Positions 5,228 to 29,506 of a DNA stretch of 32,000 nucleotides are shown here, in pieces; within the stretch, counting starts at the first letter, position 1, and each line of letters opens with the position of its first letter. The position numbers and the translations under genes are program-made. The notes under the pieces are model-generated. The model saw nothing but the letters and a program-made list of their open reading frames with translations. It was not told the origin of the DNA and made no database searches. The stretch comes from Adhaeribacter rhizoryzae (lineage in GTDB: Bacteria; Bacteroidota; Bacteroidia; Cytophagales; Hymenobacteraceae): assembly GCF_008629685.1 (NCBI RefSeq), contig NZ_VWSF01000029.1:26687-58686 (forward strand). The letters are read 5' to 3'.

Positions 5228-5235
5228 ACCTACAA

Positions 5236-6433: not shown

Positions 6434-6634
6434 ATAATTTCCAAGAACGCAATTTGTGTTTTTAGTTTAAAAATACTTCGGTAGTAATAAGCAAGTGTAA
6501 TCGGTTCGGATTAACCTTTTCTTTACTCCTAACCTACTGCCGGTAAAAAGTATCTTTTAAGCAATGGTAAGTATACTGGCAAATAATTAATCTGGTCGTG
6601 TTTTTATGAATTTTAAATATAAATAGCTCTGTTG

Positions 6635-9105: not shown

Positions 9106-9123
9106 CTGTCAGCGTAAATTAGT

Positions 9124-9627: not shown

Positions 9628-9682
9628 AATTTATTTAAATTTAATTGCCAGAAAAAGAGAGAAAATATTAATCGTTTATCAG

Positions 9683-10794: not shown

Positions 10795-13131
10795 TTAGCT
10801 GTTTACTTCTTCTGTTATTTCTCTGGAAGTAGGAACAGGTTCGCCAACAGGTTCAATAGTTGGGTAATCATCCGGCGAAATATCGGTGTGGGGTTGTAAT
10901 GACCAACCGGTCTTCAAGCCAATTACAAACCAGGCCAGGGCTACCACTCCTAAGGCAAAAATGGTATCTCCTATTACCCGCAGCCAGCGCAAAATTTCCA
11001 TGGTATCGGTTTGCATAAATTCCATGGAGCGGGCATACCATAAACCATGTTCTACACTGGCCCAGGTTTGCAGCAAACCCACTGGTAACACACTTATTAG
11101 TACCATCAGGCCCAGCCCAATATTTATACTCCAGAAAGCAAAACTAATAACACTGTCTTTCCAAACGTTGCGGGCAGCCATACCTTTGAGCGCGAACAGC
11201 ATTAAACCAATTCCCAAAACTCCGTATACCCCGAATAAAGCGGTGTGACCGTGTACCGGCGTGGTATTTAAGCCTTGCATATAGTAGAGTGCAATAGGCG
11301 GATTGATAACGAAACCAAAAATACCAGCTCCTACCAAATTCCAGAAAGCCACCGCAATAAAGCAGTAAATAGGCCACTTGTAAGCTTTAATCCAGGTGGT
11401 AGAGCGGCTTAGTTCCAGGTTATGGTAAGCTTCAAAACCGATTAATACCAGAGGCACTACTTCTAGAGCGCTAAAAGTGGCGCCCAAAGCCAGCACCGAA
11501 GTAGGCGTACCACTGAAATACAGGTGGTGAAACGTGCCAATAATACCGCCAAACAAGAAAATAATGGTGGAAAATAATACTGTTGGCGTGGCAATTTTGG
11601 TACGCAGTAAACCCATCCGCACGAACAAAAAGGCAATTACCACAGTAGCAAAAACTTCAAAGAAACCTTCTACCCACAGGTGCACCACCCACCAGCGCCA
11701 GTACTCGGCAATGGCCAGGTTAGTTTGGCGGCCCCACATCAGGCCAGCGCCGTAGAATACCGCAATGGCTACCGATGAAATCAGGAACATACCCAACAAA
11801 TGGCGGCCTTCAGCATCTTTTTTAAATGCTGGCCAGATGGCGCGGGTCATTAAAAACAACCACAAAAACAAACCTACCAGCAGGAATATTTGCCAGAAAC
11901 GGCCTAAATCTACGTATTCATACCCTTGGTGCCCAAACCAGAAATTTTCTACCAGACCTAGTTTCTGCATTACACCAAACCACTGCCCGGCCAAAGAACC
12001 TACTACTATGATTAGTAAGGCAATAAAAAGCAAGTTTACGCCGGCCCGCTGGAATTTAGGTTCGTGGCCTGATACCGCCGGGGCAATAAATAAGCCGGTC
12101 GCCAACCAGGAAGTCGCAATCCAGAAAATAGCCAGTTGCACGTGCCAGGTGCGGGAGATAGAGTAAGGTAAAATATCGGCCAGTGGCAAACCGTAGAGTG
12201 CCTGCCCTTCTACGCCGTAGTGCGCCGTAACCACACCCATAATTACTTGTACCAATATTAAGGACGTTACAGTCCAGAAATATTTAAGCGTAGCACGCAT
12301 AGAGGGCGTTGGCTCCAAGCCCAGCAGCGGGTCTTTCTGTGGCAGTTTGCTTACATCTAGCTCTTCTTCTTTATTTGAAGCATAATAATAGGCTAATAAC
12401 CCAATGCCCGCAATCAGTACAATTACGCTAAAGCCTGTCCAGATAATCAGGTCGCTGCTGGGTTTATTGCCGACTAACTTTTCGTGGGGCCAGTTATTGG
12501 TGTAAGATATATTTTGGCCAGGGCGTTCGGTCACGCAGGCCCAGGAAGCCCAGAAGAAAAAGGCATTCATCTGGCGCATCCGTTCCGGGTCTTTAATGCT
12601 GTTATCCGGAATGGCGTAAGCTTCGCGGTATTTGGCCATGTCGGCATCATTCATAAATAAACCGGTATAGTAGCGGCTTACATCGGCAATGGCGGCGGCC
12701 CGCACATCCAAAATAGTTATGGTGTTGGCCTGATTATTATAAGTATTTTGCCGGATTTGTGTTTGCAACCGAGCTTCTAAACCGGCCTTGCTTTCGTTAT
12801 CTAAATCAGAAAACTTTTCACCTTTCTCCGCGGTGGCCCAAATATCCAGCATATACATGGCTTCTTTGTGCAGCCACTCAGCCGTCCAGTCGGGTGCCTG
12901 GTAAGCGCCATGGCCCCAGATGGAACCTACTTCCTGCCCGCCCATCGATTGCCAAACATTTTGTCCGTTTTTAATGTCCTGGGCTGTAAATAAAACCTGG
13001 CCTGAAGCCGAAACTACTTTATCCGGAATGGGGGGTGCTTGCCGGTAAATCTCCGAACCATAATACCCTAAAACGGCAAAAGACCCGACTATTACGGCTA
13101 TAAATCCGAGCCATAATTTGGTGTATTTCAT
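10795..13131 (-). CDS. norB: Quinol-dependent nitric oxide reductase (qNOR, single-subunit NorB/NorZ type)
   Basis: 778 aa. An N-terminal TM helix and a ~200-aa periplasmic extension (GQNVWQSMGGQEVGSIWGHGAY) precede a heme-copper core carrying WWVVHLWVEGFFEVF, FHHLYFSG and VHGHTALFGVYG. Confidence 0.95.
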   Translation of the reverse strand: MKYTKLWLGFIAVIVGSFAVLGYYGSEIYRQAPPIPDKVVSASGQVLFTAQDIKNGQNVWQSMGGQEVGSIWGHGAYQAPDWTAEWLHKEAMYMLDIWATAEKGEKFSDLDNESKAGLEARLQTQIRQNTYNNQANTITILDVRAAAIADVSRYYTGLFMNDADMAKYREAYAIPDNSIKDPERMRQMNAFFFWASWACVTERPGQNISYTNNWPHEKLVGNKPSSDLIIWTGFSVIVLIAGIGLLAYYYASNKEEELDVSKLPQKDPLLGLEPTPSMRATLKYFWTVTSLILVQVIMGVVTAHYGVEGQALYGLPLADILPYSISRTWHVQLAIFWIATSWLATGLFIAPAVSGHEPKFQRAGVNLLFIALLIIVVGSLAGQWFGVMQKLGLVENFWFGHQGYEYVDLGRFWQIFLLVGLFLWLFLMTRAIWPAFKKDAEGRHLLGMFLISSVAIAVFYGAGLMWGRQTNLAIAEYWRWWVVHLWVEGFFEVFATVVIAFLFVRMGLLRTKIATPTVLFSTIIFLFGGIIGTFHHLYFSGTPTSVLALGATFSALEVVPLVLIGFEAYHNLELSRSTTWIKAYKWPIYCFIAVAFWNLVGAGIFGFVINPPIALYYMQGLNTTPVHGHTALFGVYGVLGIGLMLFALKGMAARNVWKDSVISFAFWSINIGLGLMVLISVLPVGLLQTWASVEHGLWYARSMEFMQTDTMEILRWLRVIGDTIFALGVVALAWFVIGLKTGWSLQPHTDISPDDYPTIEPVGEPVPTSREITEEVNS

Positions 13132-13324
13132 AACAATTGTAATTAATGATGAACAAGAAATTTTAAAATTGACATGCTGATTTATGTTCCTTTATTTAGC
13201 TGTAAAAGCGATTACATGGACAAAAACAACAAATAATCCAATTATTAACCTGTAGCGATAATCATTCTGAATGCTATTGGTGCTTTTTCAAGAGATAAAA
13301 GTATATTTATCTTAAATGCTGGCT

Positions 13325-13340
13325 AATGATGAAAATCACT
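13325..13340. promoter_or_regulatory. FNR/CRP-like box AATGAT-GAAA-ATCACT upstream of norB
   Basis: A TGAT-N4-ATCA core about 200 bp upstream of the norB ATG. It matches the palindrome upstream of the nos operon at 13 of 16 positions. The 10-mer TAATGATGAA also recurs at 13144-13153. Confidence 0.35.
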
Positions 13341-13659
13341 TAGTATTGTGATACTCCTCAGATATAAAGAAAATAATACGCGTATAGAAGACAAAAATGT
13401 CTTTTACTATTTTAATTTAGTATTTACTTTACTACCTAAAATCAATAATATTTTCTTTAAAGTTGAAGGCCTGATCTGGCAAATAGTTTTGGTAGGAAAT
13501 TTAGCTATTGCTTTCTCTGCCTGAAGTATTAGTAAATAATTTGCTGATTCTTATCTCTAATCAATCAAATCCTAAAAAATAACAAGTAAAATATAAGTAA
13601 ACGCCCTTTAAAACCGTAGGTAAGTGATAGTGCTAAAGTTTACCGCAATGTAATATTCT

Positions 13660-14137
13660 ATGGAAAAAAACTTAAAACGTAGTATACACATTGAAATCCT
13701 AACCAACGAACATCATACAGGCCTATTATTCTGCTGGAGAATACGTCAGGGGCTAAAAAAAGGAATTAATACAAACCGGATTCAGGCGTATGTTCCGTAT
13801 TTGGGAAATTCATTTGCAGCCCCATATTCAGAAAGAGGAAGAACAAATGGTCTATAAAATTAAATCTTGAATTATGCCAGAAAGCCTTACTCCAACACCA
13901 GGAAATTAAAAGCCTGGTTGCCTAGGTAACCGTTAGTACACCGGCACCATCACCCGATTTACTAAACCAGTTGACTGATTACGTAGATGCCCACATCCGT
14001 TTTGAATAAAGAGAATTATTTCAGCACTTGGAAAAAGTTTAAGCCAAAAAGAGTTGGAAAGCATTGGCGCCGCATTAGAAAAATCGCACACCACCCCAAT
14101 ACCCGACAACTATGCAGATGCGTTTTGGTCAAAATGA
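13660..14137 (+). pseudogene. Hemerythrin-domain protein pseudogene (paralog of 9124..9627)
   Basis: Stitching three frames gives MEKNLKRSIHIEILTNEHHTGLLFCWRIRQGLKKGINTNRIQAYV / RIWEIHLQPHIQKEEEQMVYKI / LCQKALLQHQEIKSLVA*VT...LLNQLTDYVDAHIRFE*RELFQHLEK / LSQKELESIGAALEKSHTTPIPDNYADAFWSK*. This needs at least 3 frameshifts and crosses 2 in-frame stops. It runs collinear with the intact hemerythrin protein (LSREHHFELLFAWKIKQGL..., HVRFEERIFFPYLE). Confidence 0.8.
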
Positions 14138-14516
14138 ATAAGGCAAAAGGAAGAATTTATTTGGGTTAATAATCAATATTCCGAATTTCCGGCAGGCACT
14201 ACCACCGCCATTGTACCATTAAACACGGAGATTATACTGCCCTATACTCCACAAAGTAGCCGGTATAAGGAACTGCATTCTTTTATCTAATTAGAAAAAA
14301 ACTGATATTATAGCATTGGAGTGTTTATAAAGACTATATTGCAAATTATTCGGAATAACACAATTTGGCTAAAGGCCGTAATATCACAAAGCTTTTACGT
14401 TTCATAATTATTACATCTAATATTCAGCGAAACGAACGTAAGCAATTATTTTTATCTGATATAACTCTAAGGAGAATGCTAATGCCTTAAGTTACCTAAC
14501 CCCAAAAGATAAAATT

Positions 14517-16016
14517 ATGCCCGATGAAAGTCTTGTAAGTTTTACGTCGCATAAAATATTATTTCTGAATACCCTGGCTTTTACGGTTTGTTTTGCCGCC
14601 TGGATGCTGAACGGGGTATTGGTAACATACTTAACGGATAACGGGATTTTTGAATGGAGCATGGTACAAATTGGCTGGCTCCTGGGTGTACCAGTCCTAA
14701 CTGGGTCTTTATTCAGGTTGCCCATTGGGATTTTAACCGACCGGATAGGCGGTAAATGGGTTTTTGGTATTTTGCTATTGTTTTGTTCCGTTCCCATGTT
14801 CCTGCTTTCCCAGGCCAATAGCTATTCTACCTTTTTACTTTTGAGCTTTTTGTTTGGCATGGCCGGTACCAGTTTTGCGGTTGGGGTGGGCTATACATCC
14901 GTTTGGTATCCCAAAAGCTGGCAAGGACGAGCTATTGGTATATTTGGTATGGGTAGCGCCGGTGCTTCGCTTACCACTTTAATCGGACCTTCCTTATTAA
15001 ATAACCTAACGGCTGGTGGTGCCAATCCGGAAGGTTGGCGACAATTACCGGTTATTTATGCGGGGGCCTTGCTGGCAATGGCTATCTTGTTTTTGATTTT
15101 TGCCCAAAATAAAAAACCTGTTGCGGCCGGTAAGTCTCTGCAGGCTATTGTTATGCCCCTAACACAAATTAGGGTGTGGCGTTTTGGCTTGTATTATTTT
15201 CTGCTCTTCGGCTGTTTTGTAACTTTCTCGCAGTGGCTGGTTCCATATTTTGTGAATGTTTATCAGACAGACCTTATTCTGGCGGGTTTACTTGCCTCCA
15301 CTTTTAGTTTGCCCGCCGGATTGTTCCGGGCGGTAGGCGGCTTTCTTTCGGATAAATACGGTGCCCGAAAAGTAATGTATGGGGTCTTGGGCTGTTCAGT
15401 AATACTCAGTTTCTTTTTAATTATTCCCCGCATGGAAATTTCTTCACCCGGCTCGGGGGTAATGGCTACCAGCGCTGGTACTGTAACATCGGTATCAGAC
15501 ACAGCTATTACGGTAAATAATAAAACATATCCGGTTACGGCCAAAAGTAATATGTTTGAACATGTTAACAGAAAGGCATTGGTTTTTCCGGCTAAAGAAA
15601 GCTGGCACGAGGTTTTGGTAAAGCCCGGCGATAAAGTAACTAAAAAACAATTACTGGCACAGGGCACTACCCGTATTTACTTCAAGGCCAATATGTGGGT
15701 ATTTATTGGATTGGTGATGTTTATTGGCATGGCGTGGGGCATTGGTACAGCTGCGGTGTTTAAACATATTCCGGAATATTTTCCTACTCAAATTGGCTTG
15801 GTTGGCGGTATGGTAGGCTTAATTGGTGGGCTTGGCGGCTTTGTCGGGCCAATTTTGTTTGGCTATTTACTTAGTACTACTGGCCTCTGGACCAGTTCCT
15901 GGATGTTTGTCCTGCTACTTTCCATTATTTGCCTCGTTTGGATGCACCTGATTATTACCCGGATGATGAACCGGAGTGCTCCCGATTTGGCTGATAAATT
16001 TGAACATCCGCACTAA
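14517..16016 (+). CDS. narK: MFS nitrate/nitrite transporter (NarK/NasA family) with an inserted ~88-aa loop domain
   Basis: A 12-TM MFS layout. Nitrate/nitrite-porter-like Gly-rich motifs are present (FGMAGTSFAVGVGYTS, GGLGGFVGPILFG), as are conserved Arg-containing helices (SLFRLPIGILTDRIGGK, GLFRAVGGFLSDKYG). An extra soluble segment covers aa 305-392. Confidence 0.85.
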   Translation: MPDESLVSFTSHKILFLNTLAFTVCFAAWMLNGVLVTYLTDNGIFEWSMVQIGWLLGVPVLTGSLFRLPIGILTDRIGGKWVFGILLLFCSVPMFLLSQANSYSTFLLLSFLFGMAGTSFAVGVGYTSVWYPKSWQGRAIGIFGMGSAGASLTTLIGPSLLNNLTAGGANPEGWRQLPVIYAGALLAMAILFLIFAQNKKPVAAGKSLQAIVMPLTQIRVWRFGLYYFLLFGCFVTFSQWLVPYFVNVYQTDLILAGLLASTFSLPAGLFRAVGGFLSDKYGARKVMYGVLGCSVILSFFLIIPRMEISSPGSGVMATSAGTVTSVSDTAITVNNKTYPVTAKSNMFEHVNRKALVFPAKESWHEVLVKPGDKVTKKQLLAQGTTRIYFKANMWVFIGLVMFIGMAWGIGTAAVFKHIPEYFPTQIGLVGGMVGLIGGLGGFVGPILFGYLLSTTGLWTSSWMFVLLLSIICLVWMHLIITRMMNRSAPDLADKFEHPH

Positions 16017-16198: not shown

Positions 16199-16456
16199 CT
16201 AAAAGTTGATATTTTTTCTTCTTACCTGGTTGGGCAAGAAATAAAGCCAGCCGGCGCCAATTAAAAACAAGACAAATGAGGCAATAAAGGCTGGAAATGC
16301 AATATCAGTATTTTCGGCCAGTGCATTGTTCAATGCTGTATATAGCAGCCAAATCTGGAGGCTTACATTCATTATCAGAATAACAATTAAAGCCAGCATC
16401 AGGGTGCTGGTTTTGTTCGGGTGTGCCTGGTTCTGGGCTTCGCGGAAGTTACTCAT
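16199..16456 (-). CDS. Small 2-TM membrane protein, last gene of the molybdoenzyme operon
   Basis: 85 aa with two hydrophobic helices (LMLALIVILIMNVSLQIWLLY, AFIASFVLFLIGAGWLYF). It starts 13 nt after the Rieske gene stop, on the same strand. Confidence 0.6.
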   Translation of the reverse strand: MSNFREAQNQAHPNKTSTLMLALIVILIMNVSLQIWLLYTALNNALAENTDIAFPAFIASFVLFLIGAGWLYFLPNQVRRKNINF

Positions 16457-16469
16457 ACCTGATATTCAA

Positions 16470-17000
16470 TTAAGTGCTACTGGTGTTAAACGGGTTGGCG
16501 GCGTTGGTTTCAAATTCTTTCACGTAAATATCTTCCCCTTTTATTACCACCTCTAACCGGGGTAAGGGCCGGGGCGGTGGTCCTGCCAAAACTTCGCCGG
16601 TTAAGGCATCAAACCAGCCATCGTGACAGGGGCATTCTATTTTGCCGCTTTTCGGCATATAAAATACGGCACACGATAAATGCGTACACTTTTGCTCATA
16701 AGCACGGAATTCGTCGGTTTCGAGGCGGATAAGAATATAGGGTATGGTGCTGCCGGTAATAACAAACGAGCGTGTGCCGCCTTTAGGCAGTTCGCTTTTT
16801 TTACAAACCAAGTGCTCCCCCTGCACTTTTTCGGGTGGAAAAAAATTTGCTTTAACCGCGACGTAACCGCTACCGGTAGCCAACCCACCCGAAACCAGGC
16901 AAAGAAATTTAGCAAAATCGCGGCGGGTAACCTGGGTTGCTTCCAGTTGCTCTATCGGGAAATCTTCTTTCCAGTGATTATCTTTTTCGTCGGTTGCCAT
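16470..17000 (-). CDS. Rieske [2Fe-2S] protein, bc-type, with a twin-arginine / TM-anchor N-terminus
   Basis: QVTRRDFAKFLCLVSGGLATGSG is a Tat-like RR motif followed by a hydrophobic helix. The cluster boxes CTHLSC and CPCHDG include the two extra Cys typical of disulfide-stabilised, high-potential Rieske proteins. Confidence 0.85.
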   Translation of the reverse strand: MATDEKDNHWKEDFPIEQLEATQVTRRDFAKFLCLVSGGLATGSGYVAVKANFFPPEKVQGEHLVCKKSELPKGGTRSFVITGSTIPYILIRLETDEFRAYEQKCTHLSCAVFYMPKSGKIECPCHDGWFDALTGEVLAGPPPRPLPRLEVVIKGEDIYVKEFETNAANPFNTSST

Positions 17001-17004
17001 AATG

Positions 17005-17574
17005 CTAGTCTACAATTAATTGGGTACTCCCCTTCGGCATCATAATATTTACTTTAGTGCTTACCTTTTCATTACCGAAAAGGAAATTATTGACCGGTGT
17101 ACTGTTGGGCCGCATCCGGGCCATTTCTTCGCGGGTGCCGTAATAAAGAGCCTGGGTGGGGCAAACCGTAGCGCACATGGGCTTTTTGCCAGCGCTGGTC
17201 CGGTCGTAGCACATGTTACACTTCATCATTAAATCGTAAGCCTCATTCTTTTTGGGTACCCCAAACGGACAAGCCATTACACAATTAGAGCAGCCAATGC
17301 AACGAGCCGTGTTAGCTGTATGCACCACTCCAAACTCATCTTTCGAGATGGCATCGGCCGGGCAAACGTTAGCGCAAACCGGGTCGTCGCAGTGCATACA
17401 CACCTGCACGGTGGTCTGAATGGTAACCGCCCGGTCTACGTAATTGACGTGTATCATCGATTCGTGGCCGTTGGTTTCGCATTCGGCACAAGCCATTTCG
17501 CAGGCTCTGCATCCGATACACCGCTGCATATCCACAAAAAATTCTTGCTGGGTTTGATAATTGGTTTGGGGCAT
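17005..17574 (-). CDS. Four-cluster [4Fe-4S] ferredoxin subunit (DmsB/NrfC/HybA-like)
   Basis: Four Cys groups: CIGCRACEMAC, CMHCDDPVCANVCP, CIGCSNCVMACP, CNMCYDR...CATVCP. 189 aa with no signal peptide. Confidence 0.85.
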   Translation of the reverse strand: MPQTNYQTQQEFFVDMQRCIGCRACEMACAECETNGHESMIHVNYVDRAVTIQTTVQVCMHCDDPVCANVCPADAISKDEFGVVHTANTARCIGCSNCVMACPFGVPKKNEAYDLMMKCNMCYDRTSAGKKPMCATVCPTQALYYGTREEMARMRPNSTPVNNFLFGNEKVSTKVNIMMPKGSTQLIVD

Positions 17575-17600
17575 ACTGTTATGTTTTAGCTTACAAAATA

Positions 17601-19850
17601 TTATGCACTGGCAAAAGCATTAGACTCCTGCGAAGGCGGCGCTTTAATTCCTAATGGCTCTAACTTACAAGCACATACCTTAAACTCCGGAATTTTGGAT
17701 ATCGGGTCCAGCGTACCAGGGGTAAACTGGTTAGCTGATTTTTTCCCGGGCCAGTGATACGGCAGAAAGACCGTATCGCGCCGGATAGTTTCTACAATAT
17801 TCGCCGGGAATTCATCCGTTCCGCGCCGGGTAGAAACCCGCACCAGTTCGTCCTGATGGATGTTATATTTTAAGGCCAGTTCCGGATGTATTTCCAGCTT
17901 GGGCTCCGGATAAATATCTACTAATTTGCCAATTCGGCGGGTTTGAGTACCGCTTAAATATTGCGATACTACCCGGCCGGTAGTTAAAACCACGGGGTAC
18001 AAATCATCGGTAACTTCGCCTGGTTCCCGATAAGCAACGGCATTAAAGTGGGCCTTGCCATCGGGAGTAGCAAACTTTTTATCTTCCCATAAACGAGGCG
18101 TACCCGGATGGTCTAACGTGGGACAGGGCCAGAAAACGCCCATTTTTTCTTCAATTTTTTGGTAGGTAATGCCAAAATAATCGGCGGTGCCGCCCTTAGA
18201 AGCTACCCGCAATTCATTAAATATATCTTCGCTGGAGTTGTACCGGAATTTATCGCCTGCTCCTAATCGCTCGGCTAATTCTAATATAATAGCGGTATCG
18301 GTACGCGCCTCACCCGGTGGACTTACCGCCCGCCGAATTCTTACTACTCTGCCTTCGGCAGTAGTAACGGTTCCTTCCTCTTCTTCGTGCAACGAACCAG
18401 GCAAAATTATATCGGCGTGGCGGGCTGTTTCGTTCATGAAAAAATCGATGCACATGTAAAACTCCAGTTTCTCCAGAGCCTCGCGTACATAGTTGTTGTT
18501 GGGTAGCGATACCAACGGATTAAAGCAAATGGAAATCAATCCTTTTACTTCGCCCCGGTGAATGGCTTCAATCAGTTCGTAAGCCGTAAGCCCTTTGCCC
18601 GGCATATCTTTTTCGTCTATGCCCCAAACCTGGGAAATATATTTACGATGCTCCGGATTGGTGATGTCGCGGTTGCCGGGCAATTGGTCGCATTTATGGC
18701 CGTGTTCGCGGCCGCCTTGGCCATTACCCTGGCCGGTAATGGTACCGTAACCGCAATAAGGTTTGCCTATCCGGCCGGTAGCCAGTACTAGGTTTATGCA
18801 ACCCAATACATTGTCTACCCCTTTGGAATGATGTTCGATGCCGCGGGCGTGCAATAAAAAACTGGTAGCCGCTTTGCCCCACCACTGCGCCGCCAGTTCA
18901 ATTTTTTCTTTTTCGATGCCGGTAACTTCTTCGGCCCATTCCAGGGTATAATCTTTTACGGTGGCTAAAGCCTGGTCAAAACCGGAAGTATAATTATTTA
19001 TAAAATCATGGTCCAGCATATCATGGTCGGCCAAATACTTCAACATGGCGCCATATAAAGCTGAATCGGTACCGGGCCGAATGGGCAGGTGTAAATCGGC
19101 GGTACGGGCCAGCGGAATTACGCGCGGGTCTACTACAATTAGTTTCGCACCGTAATCGCGGGCCCGCCATATCCAATGCGTCAAAGTCGGGAATGTTTCA
19201 CTTACATTGGCACCGGCCACCAAAATTACTTCAGCCCGCTCTAAGTCCTCAAACGTATTCGAAATCCGGTCGAGGCCAAAAGCTTTCTTGTTGCCGGCAC
19301 CCGCGCTTACCATGCACAAGCGGCCATTATAATCGAGGTTAGCGGTTTTAAGTGCCACCCGGGCAAATTTCCCCACCAGGTAGCTTTTTTCATTAGTTAA
19401 CGAAACGCCCGACAACATGGCAAAAGCATCGTTGCCGTACTGCGCCTTAATGCGTTTAATTTCTGAAACGGTTTTTTCCATGGCGGCATCCCATGGAACC
19501 GGGGTAAACCCTACTCCTTCCTGCCGCTGCAAAGGTTGCAACAGGCGGTCGGGGTGGTTGTTTTGCATGTAGCGCTGCACACCTTTGGGGCATAAGCGGC
19601 CTTCGTTAAACGGGAACTCCATCCACGGGTCGAAACCAACTACTTTATTCTTTTTAACCAACAGCTTAATGCCGCACTGCATACCGCAAAAACAGCAATG
19701 CGTTTTTACCACCGCATCCGGTTCATCGCGGCCTAAGAAACCTTCGTGCGAAGGATAATTTTTGTGGGGTCCAAATTGGGCAATCAGTTTTTCGGGAGAT
19801 ACCGGAAGATACGCCATATTAGTTCTTTTAACCGAATAATTTACCGCCAT
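17601..19850 (-). CDS. Molybdopterin (bis-MGD) oxidoreductase catalytic subunit, Nas/NarB/Nap-like nitrate-reductase type, no signal peptide
   Basis: 749 aa. An N-terminal 4Fe-4S motif [10 protein letters not shown]...RLCPKG is present. The segment [18 protein letters not shown] resembles the Cys-Mo-ligand region of Cys-ligated nitrate reductases. There is no RR motif. An alternative start is M12 at 19817 ([10 protein letters not shown]). Confidence 0.85.
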
Positions 19851-20895
19851 CCTGCTGGCGGGCCTTGAGGTGAGCCATACCCAACCGCGAACGTTTTCCT
19901 TCGGGGCTTAAATCCAGGTGAGAAGTTCCGTCTGCCCGGGTAAAATCAAAACCTAGCTCTTTGGTTACCGTTTTTAAATCGTCTATATGCATCTGGGTCG
20001 CGAATTCTTTACCGGTATGCGGACAAACGGCCATGCCTCTTTTAATACCTTCTCTTTTGTAGATGTGGGCGCCAATTTGGGCCGGCCGCTGAATAATATG
20101 AAAAAACTTACCAAATGGAATCCAAATCAAAAACATGATAACTGTTACAGCGTGGGTTACGGCCATAAAATCATAGGCCATGCCTTTCATAAACTGGTAA
20201 TCGTAGGTTAATCCTAAACCGGTAATAGAAATAGCCAGCAGCAGTATTAAAGGCAGTAAATCGCCATCGAAGGATTGGATAGAAATTAAACCGGCGTGGG
20301 TTAGCCGGCGGCGCATAAAAATCAGCACCCCAATTATTACCAGCCAAGAACACCAGTTAAGGGCATGAAACGTGAAGAAAGCAATAAAAGAACCAAGCGG
20401 AAATTCAAAAACCTTAAATCCAAAAAAATGTGCTTCGTACATGCGAACGCTATCGGGGTTCAGACTGGTTTCGGGATTGAGGGTAAAATGAATCCAGCCA
20501 AAAGTGAGCGGAAAAGTAATGGCAAAGGCCATGGTACAACCTACGGCCATTAAAAAGTGACCAATCCACCGGCTGCGGCCTCTGGGATAAATAAATTTCT
20601 GAAAACCAATATTCTGAATGAATTCTTTTATAAAAAAGTACAAGTGCGCAAACACTTGGCCTTTAAATACAAACTGCCAGGTACGTTTAAAATACATCCA
20701 GGTGGGTGGCCGTTGCAGCCAAACCGAATACCGGTACACAATTCCAAAAAAGGCGAATACCGTTCCGAATAAATAACCAATCAGGGCCGGGTCAAAATTC
20801 TGTAGTTTGCGGGAGCCGTAAAAGACCGTTGCTATCACCAAAACAGAAACCAGCGTTGCTATCAGAATTGCTTTTCGGTTGAGGGTGGTATTCAT
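19828..20895 (-). CDS. Polytopic membrane protein, NarI/HdrE/DsrM-like (putative di-heme cytochrome b) with a ~80-aa cytoplasmic tail
   Basis: 355 aa with about 6 TM helices that carry His residues ([20 protein letters not shown]). The last helix, [15 protein letters not shown], resembles the PF.K..H motif of the NarI-gamma family (from memory, not computed). It overlaps the Mo-subunit ORF by 23 nt. Confidence 0.7.
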
Positions 20896-21222: not shown

Positions 21223-22344
21223 ATGAAAGAGGTGAACTTATTTCTGGAAAAATTCGACAAGCAAATTAAGTTAAAAGGTTTTGGCGTGCCGGGCCAGGAA
21301 GCATTGACCAATGCCAAGGTTCTGGTGATTGGTGCCGGGGCACTGGGTATTCCGGTAATTACTTACCTGGCTGCTGCGGGCGTTGGCAACCTGGGAGTAG
21401 TTGAACCCGGTATGGTTTCTTTATCAGATTTACCCTTGCAGCCTTTGTTTAAGAGCAACGAAGTAGGCAAAGCTAAACTAGCGAGCGTGGTTCAGCACGT
21501 AAGAGATTTAAATCCGGATACAACCCTGCAACTGTACGATTATGCGCTGGATGCAGAAAATGCACTTCAAAGAATATCCCGGTATGAAGTAGTAGTAGAT
21601 GCTACTAATAATTTAAAATCAGCTTTATTAATGAATGATGCCTGCGTAATTGCGGGTGTACCGCTTGTCTTTGGCTTGGTTTACCAATACACTGGTATGT
21701 ACTGTGTATTAAATTTTAAAAAAAGCGCCACCTTGCGTTGTATGAAGTCGGATGCTAAGCTGCGGAAATATTTGAATGAAGACGAGTCGGACGGGGTATT
21801 AGGTATTCTGCCCGGTATAATTGGCTGCCACCTGGCAGGAGAAGTGGTAAAAATAATAAGTAACCTGGGCGATGTACTTGCTAATAAGCTTCTAAGCTAC
21901 GATTTCCTGAAAAACCAGCAACAGGAATTAAAGGCCACTCTTAACCCGGAGAACCTAAAAATAGAAACACTACAAGAGCCTTATTTTTCCACTGAAATAC
22001 CTCAAGTAAATAAAAAAATACAGTCGATTACGCCGCATCAGCTTTTCTTAAAATTAAACTATCAGGAATCGCTACAACTGATTGATATCCGGGAGGATGA
22101 AGAATGGAACATTTTCCATTTGGAAAATGCCATCCATATACCGGCCAGTGAATTTCTAAATAATTTAGATAAAATTCACCAGGATATTGCTGTAATATTA
22201 ATTTCCCATAAAGGTGAAATCAGTAAAGAACTTACTGACTTACTTTTAACGAAACATGGGTTTGGCAATATTTATAATTTAGCAGGAGGAATTGATGCCT
22301 GGGCGCGAGAAATTGACCAATCTATGGCAACTTATAAAGGGTAA
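21223..22344 (+). CDS. ThiF/MoeB-family adenylyltransferase-like protein with a C-terminal rhodanese-homology domain (divergent)
   Basis: A Rossmann motif VLVIGAGALGIPVITYLAAAGVG is present. The C-terminal ~110 aa are rhodanese-like (LIDIREDEEWNIFHLENAIHIP...NLAGGIDAW). Several canonical catalytic positions appear substituted (see findings). Confidence 0.75.
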   Translation: MKEVNLFLEKFDKQIKLKGFGVPGQEALTNAKVLVIGAGALGIPVITYLAAAGVGNLGVVEPGMVSLSDLPLQPLFKSNEVGKAKLASVVQHVRDLNPDTTLQLYDYALDAENALQRISRYEVVVDATNNLKSALLMNDACVIAGVPLVFGLVYQYTGMYCVLNFKKSATLRCMKSDAKLRKYLNEDESDGVLGILPGIIGCHLAGEVVKIISNLGDVLANKLLSYDFLKNQQQELKATLNPENLKIETLQEPYFSTEIPQVNKKIQSITPHQLFLKLNYQESLQLIDIREDEEWNIFHLENAIHIPASEFLNNLDKIHQDIAVILISHKGEISKELTDLLLTKHGFGNIYNLAGGIDAWAREIDQSMATYKG

Positions 22345-23496: not shown

Positions 23497-24285
23497 TTAA
23501 AAATCCTTATTTTGTACTTTTTTCAGGAATAGCAGCAGCGGAACAAATATCCACACTAATAACGCCCCCAATGAAACCACCATGCCCAGCGCCGTACCTA
23601 AAAATTTATTAAATACCGCCCCGGTGTAGCCCAGCAAAGCGGCCGTTTCGAGGCGTAGTAAAATCAGAATACGTGACAAGTCGATAGGATTAAATAATGT
23701 CAGACCGATGGTGGCTTTCTCTAAAGGATAATCGTTGAAGATAACCAGGAAAGTTAGCAGCAGGCCGTCGTAAATAACGGCGGCAAACAGCCAGATCAGG
23801 ATAGCAATGCCAAAACCTTTTACCCGGTCTTCGAACAACGCCGACATCAGGAAAGCCAAACCGGTAAAAATGGCCGTAAGCAAGGTCCCACACAGCGTAA
23901 GCATACCCAAGTGCACACTTTCTTCGGCGGTGCCGGCAAATAATAAAAAGGTAATGCCTAAACCCAAACTCAAACTCAGCGCCAACGATAAGGTTAAGCC
24001 TAAATACTGGCCCAGAAATATATTATTGCGCTTAATAGGCTGGGCCAGCAGCAGTTCAGTAAATTCGCGGGAGTTATAGGCGTACATCACCCCAAACACC
24101 GTGCTGATAAGCGGCACCAGCAAGAGCACAATATTCAACAGACTTACAATAGCCTTGTTAAAATCGCCGGAAAAGTACAGCAGCGTGGCCGAAATTACCA
24201 GGAAAAATAACCCGTACAGCAGTGCCCACCAGCTCCGCCAGGTGTCGTAAAACGAATATTTTATGATTTTGGTGAGGGAGTTCAT
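23497..24285 (-). CDS. nosY: ABC-2 type permease NosY
   Basis: 262 aa, 6 TM, directly downstream of nosF with a 4-nt overlap, in the nosDFY order. Confidence 0.85.
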   Translation of the reverse strand: MNSLTKIIKYSFYDTWRSWWALLYGLFFLVISATLLYFSGDFNKAIVSLLNIVLLLVPLISTVFGVMYAYNSREFTELLLAQPIKRNNIFLGQYLGLTLSLALSLSLGLGITFLLFAGTAEESVHLGMLTLCGTLLTAIFTGLAFLMSALFEDRVKGFGIAILIWLFAAVIYDGLLLTFLVIFNDYPLEKATIGLTLFNPIDLSRILILLRLETAALLGYTGAVFNKFLGTALGMVVSLGALLVWIFVPLLLFLKKVQNKDF

Positions 24286-25019
24286 GCCGCTTGAAAACTT
24301 AATTTTTTACTTTTTTTTTCGGTTTGCAGCAATAGCTGGGCAATGGCCCGTTCGAGGTTGCTTTCGTTTTGGGTTTGCACCAGGTTTTGCACCGTGCCTT
24401 GAAAGTATATTTTACCGTCCAACAGAAATATTACTTCGTCGGCCAGTTCTTCTACTTCGCTTAAAATGTGCGTGGTAAGCAAAATGGTTTTGCCATTGTC
24501 GCGTTCTTCGCGCATTAAATCTTTCAGCTTCAGGTGCGCAACCGGGTCCAGGCCCACCGACGGTTCATCAAAAATCAGAATATCAGGATTAAACATAAAA
24601 GCCAGCACGGCATTTACTTTCTGTTTGGTGCCGCCCGATAAATTTTTCAGCTTTTTATCGCGGGCGCCCTCCAGGTTAAAATAAGAAATATACTTTTCTT
24701 CGTCCGAAGCGGTTTTCCGGATATCCCGGGTCATGCCGAGCAATTCCATCATGTTCAGGTTCTCGGGAAAACGGGCAATCTGCGGCATGTAGCCTATGCA
24801 ACTTTTATACTGCCAGTTGTTCTTAATATTTTCGTTCTGAATAAGTATCTCGCCATTATCCGGTTGGTTTAAACCCAGAATAGTTTTAATAAGGGTAGTC
24901 TTGCCGGAGCCGTTCGGCCCCAAAAAAGCATATATTTTTCCTTTCTCCAGATTTATATCAATGCCCTTCAGTACCTGCAGCTTACCAAAAGCTTTGGTTA
25001 TATTTTTAATTTCGATCAT
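24282..25019 (-). CDS. nosF: ABC transporter ATP-binding protein NosF
   Basis: Walker A GPNGSGKTT, signature LSGGTKQK, Walker B ILIFDEPSVGLD. The ATG at 25019 forms an ATGA overlap with the nosD stop. The track ORF start at 25028 is a TTG. Confidence 0.9.
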   Translation of the reverse strand: MIEIKNITKAFGKLQVLKGIDINLEKGKIYAFLGPNGSGKTTLIKTILGLNQPDNGEILIQNENIKNNWQYKSCIGYMPQIARFPENLNMMELLGMTRDIRKTASDEEKYISYFNLEGARDKKLKNLSGGTKQKVNAVLAFMFNPDILIFDEPSVGLDPVAHLKLKDLMREERDNGKTILLTTHILSEVEELADEVIFLLDGKIYFQGTVQNLVQTQNESNLERAIAQLLLQTEKKSKKLSFQAA

Positions 25020-26290
25020 GATTTCCAAGTGTTTAAACGGGTACTGGGCTGGTTATCCAATACATTTTCGGGGGTCAGTACCGGTGCTACCTTTTCTATC
25101 AGTTCCAACAAATCAATAAACAAACTGCGCAGCAACACCACCGAAGTTGGAATATCTTCGAGCAAGTAAGAAAATAATCTTACCGGTTTATGCGCTACAT
25201 CGCCCGTTCCGTCGTGGTTTAGGTCGTAGCCAGTATAGCTGCTCCAGTAATTACCTCGGAAAATATTGTTGCTGTTATAATTGGTACTGGTACTGATTTC
25301 GAAAGTATTGCCGATAAAATTATTCTCTTCAAAGGTCAGGTCTTCGCTGCTGCCCAAGAGGCGCACGGCCCAGCCATTATTCCGGAATTCATTATTTTTC
25401 AGGTACAGCCGCGTAGAGCCTTCGGCGTAAATGCCGGTAGTGTTTTGCCGGAAAATATTGCGTTCGATGCGGCTGTCCACGATATCTTTCAGCAGAATGC
25501 CGTAGGCGGCCGCGCCCCAGTTCTGCTCAAATAAATTATCTGTCATGATAATATTGCGGGAATACATCACGGCAATACCCGAACCGTTCCGGATAAATTT
25601 ATTACGCTGGTAGCTATTATTATCCGAGAACATAAAGTGCAAACCGTAACGCAAGTTGTTCTGGCTAACATTACCAGTGATGGTGCTATTGCTGGAACTC
25701 TCCAGATAAATGCCGTCGCGGTGGCCCGAAACTTTATTATCGGCTACAGTTATGTTCTCCGTGCGGTATAAGTGAATGGCATTACCGGAAGTTGATTCCT
25801 GTTTAGCATTGCCCCGGATATAATTATGGCGTACAGTGCAGCTATCGGTTTGCTCCAGGTACACGCCATAATAACAATTTAATATGGTATTATTCCGAAC
25901 GGTTATGTGGCCGCCGCCGCGTACCCGCACTGCGGCGTAATTTTTAGTAAAGCTTTCTTCTACGTTTTGGAGGGTAAGGCCAGCGATTAACACGTTTTGC
26001 GCCATCACGGAAAAAATACCCTTTTTAAAACCGGCATCTATGACGGGGTTTTGCCGCCCTATAATGGTAAGCGGTTTATTTATTTCAATGTCATTTTCGT
26101 GGTATATTCCGGAAGCAATTAAGATGGTATCGTAAGATTGCGCCAGCCGTACTGCTTCTTTTACCGACCGAATTTCACCAGTAGGGCTCACGGGTAAGGT
26201 TTTTGCTTGAACCACCTGCCCAGCCAGCAACAGCACCACTGACAAAGCGGTCTTTAAAATAAATCTGCTGGTTTGAAAGATTGCGGCCAT
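25016..26290 (-). CDS. nosD: Periplasmic right-handed beta-helix protein NosD (N2O reductase maturation)
   Basis: A signal peptide is followed by many parallel-beta-helix repeats (N.I..N...GIYL..S..N.I..N). It sits between nosL and nosF. Confidence 0.9.
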   Translation of the reverse strand: MAAIFQTSRFILKTALSVVLLLAGQVVQAKTLPVSPTGEIRSVKEAVRLAQSYDTILIASGIYHENDIEINKPLTIIGRQNPVIDAGFKKGIFSVMAQNVLIAGLTLQNVEESFTKNYAAVRVRGGGHITVRNNTILNCYYGVYLEQTDSCTVRHNYIRGNAKQESTSGNAIHLYRTENITVADNKVSGHRDGIYLESSSNSTITGNVSQNNLRYGLHFMFSDNNSYQRNKFIRNGSGIAVMYSRNIIMTDNLFEQNWGAAAYGILLKDIVDSRIERNIFRQNTTGIYAEGSTRLYLKNNEFRNNGWAVRLLGSSEDLTFEENNFIGNTFEISTSTNYNSNNIFRGNYWSSYTGYDLNHDGTGDVAHKPVRLFSYLLEDIPTSVVLLRSLFIDLLELIEKVAPVLTPENVLDNQPSTRLNTWKS

Positions 26291-26356
26291 TTTACTATTA
26301 ATATATTTTACTGCTGCGCCTATTCAGGATAAAGAAAATGTTGTTTTAATTTGTGT

Positions 26357-27400: not shown

Positions 27401-27475
27401 GGCCTTGGTTTTTAGTTTTAGGTACCCGGATTGCTTTATTAACAATCCGGGTAGCCTGTTACAAAATTTGTTTAC

Positions 27476-29482: not shown

Positions 29483-29506
29483 GATGTTTTAAATATGAGT
29501 TAAGCT

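Follow-up and report, generated by a model that had tools for sequence, protein, structure and literature searches.

The window analysed here, a 32,000-nucleotide stretch of an Adhaeribacter rhizoryzae contig (NZ_VWSF01000029.1, positions 26,687 to 58,686), contains an operon in which the gene of a molybdopterin enzyme stands together with those of a membrane protein, a ferredoxin-like protein, a Rieske protein and a small membrane peptide; the genes carry generic names in the NCBI annotation, and the question is which reaction their products catalyse and whether they do so as one complex. The original prediction, made from the sequence alone, proposed an unusual membrane-bound nitrate reductase with a Rieske protein, and the present analysis supports this reading: the operon most likely specifies a nitrate reductase that is membrane-bound and has a subunit design that has not been studied before. 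All five predicted minus-strand ORFs are present (Table 1), Pfam searches confirmed the domains of subunits B, C, D and E and gave no match for subunit A, and every motif quoted for these proteins (the FeS motif, the RLCMVSAG segment, the Rieske boxes and the last helix of A) was found.

Table 1. Genes of the operon and its surroundings, in window coordinates.
Feature	Position	Strand	Remarks
Subunit A, membrane protein	19828..20895	-	355 aa; predicted two-heme cytochrome b, NarI/HdrE/TmcC superfamily
Subunit B, bis-MGD MopB protein, Nas-like nitrate reductase catalytic subunit (putative)	17601..19817	-	738 aa from Met12
Subunit C, ferredoxin-like, four [4Fe-4S] clusters (DmsB/FdnH type)	17005..17574	-	189 aa; Fer4_11
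Subunit D, bc1/b6f-type Rieske [2Fe-2S] protein	16470..17000	-	176 aa; Pfam Rieske
Subunit E, two-helix peptide, DUF6755	16199..16456	-	85 aa; PF20540
NarK-family nitrate/nitrite MFS transporter	14517..16016	+	convergent with operon; TIGR00886, 174 bits
MoeB/MoeZ-like adenylyltransferase with rhodanese domain	21223..22344	+	divergent from operon; ThiF, Rhodanese
qNOR	10795-13131	-	
nos cluster	23497-30028	-	its NosZ has a non-Tat signal

The tight packing described in the prediction holds, B/C, C/D and D/E being separated by 26, 4 and 13 nt, respectively. The longest ORF for B (17601-19850) does have the predicted length of 749 aa and overlaps the A gene by 23 nt, but an alignment with 52 homologues places the true start at Met12 (MAYLPV..., window position 19817), which shortens the protein to 738 aa and leaves 10 nt between the A and B genes. 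In a comparison set of 61 related loci from genomes and plasmids, a few of them contig-edge fragments, every complete locus has the genes A to D in the same order, and the arrangement is far beyond chance; E comes after D in all 49 loci that allow the test. The operon occurs in at least six bacterial phyla, among them Bacteroidota, Melainabacteria, Acidobacteriota, Deinococcota and Bacillota, so the five-gene arrangement is conserved in relatives and well outside Bacteroidota. This constancy suggests that the five proteins form a single complex. Co-transcription without one complex, with D and E serving another membrane process or D acting as a soluble ferredoxin similar to NasG or NirD, is very improbable; the Nas systems of Paracoccus do use a small Rieske-type protein, NasG, but D and E stand after A-B-C, with tiny gaps or overlaps, in every testable locus of six phyla, and D has a Tat signal-anchor and bc-type boxes and matches PetC/QcrA models, not NirD.

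Subunit B contains the three MopB domains (Pfam Molybdop_Fe4S4, Molybdopterin and Molydop_binding) and had been described as a catalytic subunit of the Nas/NarB/Nap type. NCBIfam searches agree with this description, the NasC model scoring best (827 bits, cut-off 1100) in an alignment that spans the full length, ahead of Fdh-alpha (602 bits, cut-off 666) and NapA (273 bits); NasC is the top model for B in Bacteroidota, Melainabacteria and Acidobacteriota (774-848 bits). RLCMVSAG and a second 13-residue segment are invariant across phyla. B has invariant Cys-Met and Thr...GGRE at the active-site positions that are occupied in formate dehydrogenases by Sec/Cys-His and Arg, so the catalytic His and Arg of the latter are replaced by Met and Thr. 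Judged by these residues, B carries the active-site signature of a nitrate reductase and not that of a formate dehydrogenase, and both the model ranking in three phyla and the replaced residues place it outside the non-nitrate clades. A different substrate (formate, chlorate/perchlorate, selenate/tellurite, arsenite/iodate), with the nitrate context being coincidental, is very unlikely. The solved structures nearest to B by sequence are formate dehydrogenases (479 bits vs. 350 for NapA), which, like the NasC score below its cut-off, counts against the favoured model, and the Fdh-alpha score comes near its own cut-off; arsenite oxidase and iodate reductase typically have Rieske partners. Against formate stand the Met after the Mo-ligand Cys, the Thr in place of Arg and the invariant GGRE, and against arsenite the 149 bits obtained with the arsenite oxidase large-subunit model (cut-off 359), along with the four-Cys cluster motif and the Cys ligand of B.

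The transporters beside the operon bear on the substrate as well. An anion transporter lies next to A or is fused to it in nearly all loci, and it usually belongs to the NarK nitrate/nitrite family; NarK-family genes adjoin the operon in the window, in seven further loci of the set and in Deinococcus and Brevibacillus, and in 16 of 16 complete non-Bacteroidota loci of the genome scan NarK and A form a single ORF of 736-786 aa. The neighbour in about 29 other Bacteroidota loci is a SLAC1/TDT anion transporter, located 8-116 nt upstream on the same strand in 24 of them. The SLAC1/TDT family takes in tellurite-resistance and sulfite-efflux proteins, a point in favour of another substrate; however, the B proteins of NarK-linked and SLAC1-linked loci are equally close to the window protein (80-90% identity), and this, like the 16 fusions, argues for nitrate. 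The functionally linked transporter of the window operon is the NarK-family protein; its convergent orientation, the divergent MoeB-like gene and the flanking qNOR and nos genes had all been recognised correctly.

Subunit A had been predicted to be a His-bearing, NarI-like protein with about six transmembrane helices. Its NCBIfam matches are weak (TmcC, QmoC and TcuB, the first two being best); the AlphaFold2 model (pLDDT 84) contains six transmembrane helices, and the sole high-probability matches in a Foldseek search with this model are NarI chains (probability 0.87-0.99, TM-score about 0.47). H113, H177, H248, H266, C120 and C291 are invariant, and the four histidines lie two near each membrane face. 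In a profile alignment, H248 and H266 correspond to the NarI heme ligands H187 and H205 (E about 1), so that a two-heme signature of the NarI superfamily is present; the weakness of the similarity, apparent in this E-value and in the TM-score, nevertheless speaks against the favoured model. The topology of A is N-in/C-in: the MFS fusion puts the N-terminus in the cytoplasm and, taken with the six helices, the C-terminal domain too. This conserved folded domain is a degenerate zinc ribbon, which has four Cys outside Bacteroidota and retains C291 alone in the window protein; the cytoplasmic loops are conserved as well. The known NarI-family proteins NarI, HdrE, DsrM, TmcC and QmoC are all partnered by cytoplasmic Fe-S proteins.

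Such a partner may be subunit C, where four groups of four Cys, read straight from the sequence, and the Fer4_11 match bear out the predicted four [4Fe-4S] clusters; its nearest solved homologue is FdnH (1kqf_B), and its identity between loci is 54-94%. Neither a signal peptide nor a transmembrane helix was detected in C, nor a signal peptide in B, and these results, together with the inward termini of A and the partners of NarI-family proteins, suggest that B and C are cytoplasmic. Subunit D proved to be the expected Rieske protein with CTHLSC/CPCHDG boxes and an RR anchor: beyond the Pfam match, the top NCBIfam models are b6f PetC and bc1 QcrA, with the anchor included in the alignment, and the nearest solved structures are the anammox, Thermus and b6f Rieske proteins, AioB being weaker. 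The cluster boxes are of the bc type, with disulfide cysteines; the twin-arginine signal-anchor has an invariant RR in (S/T/N)RR(D/E/Q)F(A/T/S)(K/N/R)FL, a segment that leads into a hydrophobic stretch, and upstream of it lies a conserved W-x-(D/E)-(D/E)-F motif. This Tat motif is the sole export signal in the operon. Subunit E, announced as a two-helix peptide, has two helices and matches PF20540 (39 bits, cut-off 27); its Deinococcus counterpart is annotated as "DUF6755 family protein", and a 61-aa two-helix ORF occupies its position in Brevibacillus. E has no conserved Cys or His and is probably a structural membrane subunit.

The reading that we favour, with a rough probability of 0.55, is a single membrane-bound quinol:nitrate oxidoreductase of uncharacterised design composed of all five proteins, with the quinol site at the outer face and the nitrate site in the cytoplasm. 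With quinol as the presumed donor, menaquinol would be oxidised at the outer (P) face in a site built by A, the Tat-anchored D and E, and its protons would be released outside; the electrons would pass the membrane via the two hemes of A, move on the cytoplasmic side through the four [4Fe-4S] clusters of C and continue to the [4Fe-4S] cluster and molybdenum centre of B, where nitrate would be reduced to nitrite, the NarK or SLAC1/TDT-family transporter bringing nitrate in and nitrite out. This would constitute a proton-motive redox loop as in NarGHI, but with other parts: a catalytic subunit of the Nas type, a ferredoxin of the FdnH type and, with a Rieske protein as its partner, a cytochrome of the NarI fold. 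A simple NarI-type loop needs no periplasmic Rieske centre, which counts against this reading.

The same five-subunit nitrate reductase could instead face the periplasm. In arsenite oxidase, the Tat signal of the Rieske subunit exports a signal-less molybdoenzyme, which is of the same clade as B, and the invariant Tat motif of D, having no rival in the operon, could export B and C similarly; these would fold in the cytoplasm, bind D and leave the cell interior as AioA does with AioB. Quinol oxidation would then be a bc1-like split in a Q cycle: one electron would pass from the Rieske centre via C and B to external nitrate, and the second would travel via the two hemes of A and reduce quinone at a site on the inner face. 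Every subunit would thus have a clear role, a Rieske/cytochrome b module with a nitrate reductase is documented in haloarchaea, and Brevibacillus D scores equally against the AioB and bc1 Rieske models. We nonetheless regard this arrangement as unlikely: with reduction outside, it is hard to see why a nitrate/nitrite transporter should be adjacent or fused almost universally, the conserved cytoplasmic domain and loops of A suggest a cytoplasmic partner, NarI-family cytochromes work with such partners and a quinone-reducing site is not known in them, and D is overall nearer to bc1/b6f Rieske proteins, anchor included, than to AioB.

Regarding the physiological role of the enzyme with a cytoplasmic nitrate site, the genomic context points to respiration. 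In the window, between qNOR and nos, it probably serves the first step of denitrification; qNOR, NosZ, Rrf2, ScdA or anaerobic NrdD neighbour the operon in seven other loci, and in Brevibacillus narK and a Crp/Fnr-family regulator with a C-terminal Cys cluster precede A-B-C-D. The MoeB/MoeZ-like gene (224-234 bits with the MoeB and MoeZ models), which recurs in four other loci, is assigned to molybdenum cofactor synthesis, and a full Moco gene set adjoins the F. johnsoniae cluster. A purely assimilatory Nas, fed by the quinone pool and not by NAD(P)H or ferredoxin and delivering nitrite to NirBD or NirA encoded elsewhere, appears quite unlikely. Among the carriers are many, such as Chitinophaga and Mucilaginibacter, that are known as aerobes and not as denitrifiers, NasC is the top-scoring family for B, and the F. 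johnsoniae cluster has, besides its Moco genes, an adjoining siroheme-synthesis gene (TP_methylase; uroporphyrin methyltransferase). However, nas genes usually cluster with nirBD or nirA, and neither was found beside the operon among Pfam/NCBIfam-annotated neighbours or neighbour families recurring across loci; the informative neighbours are qNOR, NosZ, NO-stress genes, anaerobic ribonucleotide reductase and an Fnr-type regulator, and a membrane redox loop conserves energy, as respiratory enzymes typically do. Respiration and assimilation are not mutually exclusive roles, and elsewhere the enzyme may also supply nitrite for assimilation; the F. johnsoniae siroheme gene and the presence of NarGHJI besides a nasC/Fe-S/Rieske set in Bacillus bataviensis, a set read as assimilatory (Heylen and Keltjens 2012), hint at such use in some organisms, against the favoured model.

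A literature search found no paper describing the five-protein complex; "undescribed", as the original prediction had it, is not quite accurate, since Heylen and Keltjens (2012) had noted the linkage of nasC, Fe-S and Rieske genes in B. bataviensis. The accompanying statement that Rieske partners are not known for nitrate reductases was wrong, since the nar operons of haloarchaea include genes for a Rieske protein (NarB) and a cytochrome b (NarC), and a Q-cycle-type model has been proposed for this Rieske/cytochrome b-Nar system. Surveys that look for narG and napA genes would overlook the nitrate reductase proposed here.

Among known systems, NarGHI resembles the operon in the way of working proposed for the latter, with a NarI-fold two-heme anchor, a four-cluster Fe-S subunit, a cytoplasmic Mo site, a proton-motive redox loop and reliance on NarK-type transport; its catalytic subunit, however, is an Asp-ligated type II enzyme, whereas B belongs to the Nas/Nap/Fdh clade with a Cys ligand and a four-Cys FS0, NarH has roughly 500 aa against the FdnH-like 189 aa of C, and the operon has an anchor with six helices and a cytoplasmic domain, lacks NarJ and adds the Rieske and DUF6755 proteins. 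NasC, NasA and NarB are the nearest sequence family of B, with the same cluster motif and Cys-Met segment, but they are partnered by NasG, ferredoxin or an NAD(P)H reductase. B stands instead with membrane proteins and a ferredoxin of four clusters, does not reach the family cut-off and is never clustered with nirBD/nirA in the loci examined. In the haloarchaeal nar operons, too, a nitrate reductase is genetically linked with a Rieske protein and a membrane cytochrome of two hemes, a proposed energy-conserving quinol-oxidising module; their reductase is a Tat-exported type II NarGH and their cytochrome b a true bc1-type one, unlike the signal-less Nas-like B and the NarI-fold A. AioAB and IdrAB combine a MopB enzyme of the same broad clade with a Tat-signal Rieske subunit, but occur as soluble heterodimers in the periplasm, have a [3Fe-4S] cluster and Mo without an amino-acid ligand, and contain no four-cluster subunit or membrane cytochrome. 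In the Tmc, Hmc, DsrMK and HdrDE complexes, a NarI-family cytochrome connects a redox site or protein at the outer face with an Fe-S partner in the cytoplasm, as proposed here; these complexes act in sulfur and methane metabolism with HdrD-like proteins and c-type cytochromes, whereas the operon combines such a cytochrome with Rieske and molybdenum subunits, which none of them has.

Searches with the products of the operon A–B–C–D–E support and extend the original prediction of an undescribed membrane-bound nitrate reductase; by sequence and structure comparison, they point to a NasC-like catalytic subunit (B), a NarI-fold membrane subunit (A), a conserved gene order and a link to transporters. 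A–E would constitute a NarGHI-like quinol:nitrate oxidoreductase with the nitrate site in the cytoplasm (probability about 0.55). All five minus-strand ORFs expected in the window are present at the positions given, and Pfam assigned three MopB domains to the 749-aa ORF (B), Fer4_11 to the 189-aa protein (C), Rieske to the 176-aa protein (D) and DUF6755 to the 85-aa peptide (E). An alignment with 52 homologues places the true start of B at Met12 (MAYLPV..., window position 19817), giving a protein of 738 aa; B therefore begins 10 nt after A, without overlap, and the remaining intergenic gaps are 26, 4 and 13 nt. The surroundings also agree with the description: a NarK-family MFS gene converges on the operon, a MoeB/rhodanese gene diverges from it, and qNOR and nos genes flank it. 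A scan of the operon for sigma-70 promoters and terminators found sites no more numerous than in shuffled sequence, and the FNR/CRP-like box TTGAT-N4-ATCAA with up to two mismatches occurred at 18 sites vs about 20 expected, none of them upstream of the operon. The coordinates of the features discussed below are collected in the table.

Features of the operon, its homologues and its surroundings (L numbers denote related loci from other genomes or plasmids)
Feature	Location	Remarks
NarK–A fusion	L039:8828-11038; also L040, L041, L042-L051, L054, L056, L061	single ORF
SLAC1/TehA (TDT) transporters	L002:8926-9978, L009:8660-9736, L036:8689-9891, ~26 more loci	adjoin operon
Stand-alone A homologue named 'MFS transporter'	L062:8935-10047	example; without MFS domain
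Unannotated Brevibacillus stretch	L063:5280-13413	Brevibacillus laterosporus replicon NZ_CP011076.1
Cytoplasmic tail of A	window 19828-20040	residues ~285-355
D residues 1-24	window 16931-16996	bears W-x-(D/E)-(D/E)-F motif
Insertion in NarK-family transporter	window 15480-15730	NarK residues ~322-405; RMEISSPGSG...RIYFKANMW
Stretch between qNOR and narK	window 13132-14516	~1.4 kb; G+C 0.34; ORFs all ≤65 aa
NO-stress run	window 7014-10633	ScdA-type di-iron protein with DUF2249, hemerythrin, DUF1858/DUF2249, 446-aa protein
Fe-S assembly protein and Rrf2 regulator	window 5948-7000	after NO-stress run
Two short adjoining ORFs	window 4850-5625	second with rve integrase core domain

The top NCBIfam model for B is NasC (NF047855), which aligns end to end with a score of 827 bits; homologues of B from other phyla score 774–848 bits, all these values being below the cut-off of 1100. 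The next models are the formate dehydrogenase alpha subunit (Fdh-alpha, 602 bits vs a cut-off of 666), haloarchaeal NasA (390), NapA (273) and arsenite oxidase (149), and the ranking is the same for homologues from Melainabacteria, Acidobacteriota and Flavobacterium. NapA models as a group gave 264–273 bits vs cut-offs of 904–930, and window B had no significant match to narG (TIGR01580). The predicted motifs, a four-Cys [4Fe-4S] motif ending in CPKG and the Cys-Mo ligand segment RLCMVSAG, are there and are invariant in 53 sequences; Cys-Met together with the GGRE arginine is the nitrate-reductase pattern of Nap and Nas enzymes. When the sequence of B is compared with solved structures, cytoplasmic formate dehydrogenases score highest (479 bits) and Desulfovibrio NapA scores less (350 bits); a formate dehydrogenase alpha subunit of the FdhF/FdhA type was considered for B and rejected. 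In alignments to solved formate dehydrogenases, B has Met after the Mo-ligand Cys where these enzymes have His, and Thr, within a 13-residue segment, in place of their catalytic Arg (R of 'RGQNNVQG'), i.e., the required H141 and R333 of FdhH are Met and Thr; these alignments decide against formate. Both active-site segments are invariant in 53/53 aligned family members. The large subunit of arsenite oxidase was likewise rejected, given the cut-off of 359 bits for its model, the four-Cys motif and the conserved Cys ligand of B.

Membrane subunit A gave no match in a Pfam search, and its NCBIfam matches are weak but consistent (TmcC, 8e-6; QmoC; TcuB); two A homologues hit Nitrate_red_gam (PF02665) below the cut-off, with E = 7e-4 and 1.4e-3. 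A profile of 34 diverse homologues is colinear with E. coli NarI and places H248 and H266 on the heme ligands H187 and H205. H113, H177, H248, H266, C120 and C291 are invariant in the 34-homologue alignment, and position 177 is His in 53 of the 59 sequences of a wider alignment from the loci. In the AlphaFold2 model, which is confident (pLDDT 84, pTM 0.75), six transmembrane helices are accompanied by cytoplasmic helices at residues 65–105, by a three-stranded sheet at 135–166 on the other side of the membrane and by a small domain at the C-terminus. A Foldseek search against the PDB returned high probabilities for NarI chains only (0.87–0.99; TM ~0.47 relative to NarI), the other matches being generic helical bundles. 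The model agrees with the suggested number of about six helices; the similarity of A to NarI is weak, and A would be a two-heme cytochrome b of this type.

The orientation of A can be read from its relatives. All 16 complete non-Bacteroidota loci of the genome scan carry a single ORF of 736–786 aa in which a NarK-family MFS transporter (TIGR00886, 219 bits over the full length) forms the N-terminal half and A the C-terminal half; this ORF is a natural fusion of a nitrate/nitrite transporter to the reductase anchor. The distribution of charges and, with greater weight, these fusions predict that the N-terminus and the C-terminal domain of A are cytoplasmic; H177 and H248 would then be close to the outer side of the membrane and H113 and H266 close to its inner side, as in a chain of two hemes that spans the membrane. 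The tail of A carries a CxxC...CPxC (Cys4) pattern in Melainabacteria, Acidobacteriota, Deinococcus and Brevibacillus, and in all Bacteroidota three of the four Cys are lost and the first is kept (CPHT...SPEG). Since the Cys are kept only partly in Bacteroidota, the C-terminal domain would be no redox centre but would serve for docking, as a degenerate zinc-ribbon-like module.

In Bacteroidota, A is a stand-alone protein. Eight of their loci, the window among them, have a NarK gene next to the operon; about 29 others have a gene for a SLAC1/TDT-family anion transporter there (24 of these 8–116 nt upstream on the same strand), which may be a nitrate or nitrite channel; SLAC1/TehA (TDT) replaces NarK in Chitinophagaceae, Mucilaginibacter, Olivibacter, Parapedobacter and Prolixibacteraceae. 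NarK genes flank the operon on both sides in Deinococcus. The 499-aa NarK of the window contains an insertion of ~85 residues between both MFS halves, which is without membrane-like character. When all neighbours were clustered, the only recurring families were transporters and molybdenum-cofactor genes, and no nirBD or nirA was seen among the annotated or recurring neighbours; other informative neighbours are qNOR, NosZ, Rrf2-type regulators, ScdA and anaerobic ribonucleotide reductase. In Brevibacillus, narK comes first, followed by the gene for a regulator of the Crp/Fnr family that has a cluster of Cys at its C-terminus and then by A-B-C-D, a layout recalling that of Bacillus subtilis, where the narK-fnr region adjoins narGHJI. 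The Brevibacillus stretch is unannotated in its record; besides the Crp/Fnr regulator and A-B-C-D, it contains genes for a radical SAM protein resembling AhbD/NirJ and for a bona fide NarK and, in the position of E, a 61-aa two-helix ORF.

The genome scan, which took one genome for each species, yielded 59 loci, onto which the five proteins were mapped; the order A-B-C-D was found in every locus of sufficient length, and an HMM of E placed it directly after D in 49/49 testable loci. The five-gene order is conserved well beyond Bacteroidota. The nearest relatives of the window A are from Desertivirga (88%), Pedobacter (86%) and Arcticibacter (82%). Carriers in the genome scan include Sphingobacteriales, Chitinophagales, Flavobacterium and Prolixibacteraceae and, at a distance (41–44% identity for A, 55–58% for B), Obscuribacterales (Melainabacteria), several classes of Acidobacteriota and a Gemmatimonadales fragment; Deinococcus megaplasmids and a Brevibacillus laterosporus replicon came from a search of plasmids. 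Searched against 1.84 billion representative proteins, the A profile matched 327 clusters (counted at 50% identity) at E ≤1e-30 and 971 at 1e-10, and the operon occurs in at least six phyla. An apparent second Rieske/Fe-S set upstream in one of the related loci (L043) was merely a short local match within a 472-aa protein, and apparent B/C/D fusion ORFs in high-GC loci were ORF-calling artefacts.

Protein C has four Cys4 groups, as read directly from its sequence, and neither a signal peptide nor a membrane helix; it is nearest to FdnH and DmsB-type four-cluster proteins, its closest solved homologue being FdnH, and the narH model gave 42 bits vs a cut-off of 524. No twin-arginine signal was found in B, the conserved N-terminus of which reads MA(K/Y)(L/P)P.... 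Protein E consists of two helices without conserved Cys or His, the conserved residues lying at the outer end of helix 1; its DUF6755 score is 39.1 bits (gathering threshold 27) in the window and 44–59 bits in homologues from Melainabacteria and Acidobacteriota.

Protein D is a Rieske protein of the bc1/b6f type. The top models for it are PetC and QcrA, with an alignment spanning the N-terminal anchor; its cluster boxes are CTHLSC and CPCHDG, disulfide cysteines included. Among solved structures, it comes closest to the anammox, Thermus and b6f Rieske proteins and is less close to AioB. After CPCH, D has D-G-W-F in place of the G-S-x-Y of high-potential Rieske proteins, which suggests a low-potential centre of the menaquinol type. 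The N-terminal region contains TRRDFAKFL followed by a hydrophobic stretch, the family motif (S/T/N)RR(D/E/Q)F(A/T/S)(K/N/R)FL being invariant. About 20 residues upstream of the twin-arginine, a motif W-x-(D/E)-(D/E)-F-(P/S)-(I/V) is kept in Bacteroidota, Melainabacteria, Acidobacteriota and Deinococcus and is missing in Brevibacillus; Tat signals do not usually carry a conserved motif so close to the N-terminus, and this one might bind a cytoplasmic partner or chaperone.

In the cytoplasmic model, quinol would be oxidised on the outer membrane face, electrons would cross the membrane via the two hemes of A and pass through the four clusters of C, and B would reduce nitrate supplied to the cytoplasm by the linked transporter. 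This site is favoured by B and C being without signal peptides, by the conserved cytoplasmic domain of A and by the near-universal transporter linkage; to our knowledge, all characterised NarI-family cytochromes pair with cytoplasmic partners. A different location follows if the signal of D also exports B and C by hitch-hiking, which would yield a periplasmic reductase driven by a Q-cycle-like module; such export on a Rieske signal has a precedent in arsenite oxidase, and a periplasmic Q-cycle-like module was proposed for the haloarchaeal Rieske/cytochrome b-Nar system. This arrangement, the main rival, is held to be clearly less likely. With nitrate reduced in the cytoplasm, the Tat anchor should still put D outside, where a plain NarI-type loop has no need of a Rieske protein. 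In Tmc-type complexes, a periplasmic redox protein feeds the cytochrome, which offers an analogy for D. At a bc1-like quinol site, D may act as the first acceptor and hand its electron on to the heme chain, or it may instead pass electrons to periplasmic acceptors. A tentative, rather doubtful elaboration is that D and the NarI-fold cytochrome, fused to a nitrate transporter in many lineages, form a Qo-like quinol-oxidising site on an unrelated scaffold, with one electron going to the outward Rieske protein and the other to the hemes; the complex would then be Q-cycle-like, or would split electrons between cytoplasmic nitrate and periplasmic acceptors, e.g., later denitrification enzymes.

Whether the system serves respiration or assimilation has to be judged separately and may vary from one organism to the next. 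The position of the window operon between qNOR and nos points to denitrification; the nos cluster comprises NosZ with a non-Tat signal, NosL, NosD, an ABC pair and a cytochrome c. Despite qNOR and the complete nos cluster, no nirK or nirS was recognised among window ORFs of at least 100 aa, and the nitrite-reducing step is encoded elsewhere or absent. An assimilatory role in some carriers is what a Flavobacterium johnsoniae cluster with a siroheme gene and the coexistence with NarGHJI in Bacillus bataviensis point to. In the latter species, nasC is followed by genes for an Fe-S protein and a Rieske protein, for which an alternative assimilatory system was proposed, the membrane subunit being unmentioned (Heylen and Keltjens, 2012).

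Several other features of the window were observed. The low-G+C stretch between qNOR and narK, with its short broken reading frames, may be a decayed gene or a regulatory region; an Rfam scan of the whole window, this stretch included, gave no match. Downstream of qNOR and on the same strand lies a gene run typical of nitric oxide stress responses, in which the sole match of the 446-aa protein is a weak one to heme-copper oxidase subunit I. The pair of short ORFs farther on looks like an IS transposase split in two, at the edge of a nitrogen-oxide gene island. The window also carries SprB repeats and a type IX secretion sorting domain, which are Bacteroidota marks.

Full-text literature searches found no paper describing the A–E complex or DUF6755, and a Hydrogenobacter lead yielded no relevant match. 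Flavobacterium columnare was found to grow better anaerobically with nitrate and was said to encode only a 'soluble cytoplasmic' nitrate reductase. F. johnsoniae carries the operon and is genetically tractable. In F. columnare, 'nasA' was reportedly deleted in a later study. The NCBI names in the Deinococcus operon are 'MFS transporter', 'molybdopterin oxidoreductase family protein', '4Fe-4S dicluster domain-containing protein', 'Rieske 2Fe-2S domain-containing protein' and 'DUF6755 family protein'; the first of these is also given to stand-alone A homologues and was probably carried over from NarK-fused relatives, and JGI names some A homologues 'nitrate reductase gamma subunit'. Prokaryotic nitrate reduction is usually ascribed to three systems, Nar, Nap and Nas, and environmental surveys use narG and napA as respiratory markers and take nasA-like genes as assimilatory. 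The importance of the system lies in its wide distribution, with common Bacteroidota and Acidobacteriota of soil and water among the carriers, in its poor annotation and in the fact that narG/napA surveys overlook it. If it is quinol-linked and energy-conserving, the nitrate-respiring and denitrifying potential of these groups is underestimated, names such as 'MFS transporter', 'molybdopterin oxidoreductase family protein' and 'DUF6755' are misleading, and experiments could address a new way in which a Rieske protein is coupled to a NarI-type cytochrome and a transporter is coupled to a reductase. The Rieske/NarI-fold pairing and the transporter-anchor fusion are unusual enough to merit such work.

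Compared with known systems, B resembles NasC, NarB and NasA, which have a four-Cys [4Fe-4S] motif and a Cys Mo ligand followed by Met or Ala (Met in B). Nas enzymes, however, are soluble, draw their electrons from an NAD(P)H-reductase subunit, ferredoxin or flavodoxin and are encoded with assimilatory nitrite reductase, whereas B has as its partners a membrane cytochrome, a four-cluster ferredoxin, a Tat-anchored Rieske protein and DUF6755. NarG belongs to the type II DMSO-reductase family, with an Asp ligand and a His-Cys3 FS0, unlike B with its Cys ligand and four-Cys motif; NarH is a four-cluster subunit of ~500 aa, in contrast to the FdnH-like C of 189 aa; NarI is a two-heme cytochrome b with two bis-His sites (PF02665), to which A, with four invariant His, is weakly similar. 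No gene for the NarJ chaperone, a feature of NarGHI systems, was found in or next to the operon in the window and the related loci examined. Nap has a Tat signal on NapA and the partners NapB, NapC or NapGH, while B has no twin-arginine motif and Pfam detected no c-type cytochrome or NapGH genes in the operon. The Rieske proteins of bc1/b6f complexes share with D the Tat signal-anchor and the CxHxGC and CxCH boxes with disulfide cysteines; their cytochrome b, in contrast to the six-helix A without a Pfam match, belongs to Pfam Cytochrome_B, with eight helices or split into four and three, and is accompanied by c1 or f, a type of cytochrome absent from the operon. The AioAB large subunit, with a [3Fe-4S] motif and no amino-acid Mo ligand, differs from B in both respects. 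The claim that nitrate reductases have no known Rieske partner has to be withdrawn, as haloarchaea have narB (Rieske) and narC (cytochrome b) genes in a nitrate reductase system; a Caldithrix locus with Nap and Rieske/cytochrome b proved to be a different system. The A–E system is a new combination of known modules.
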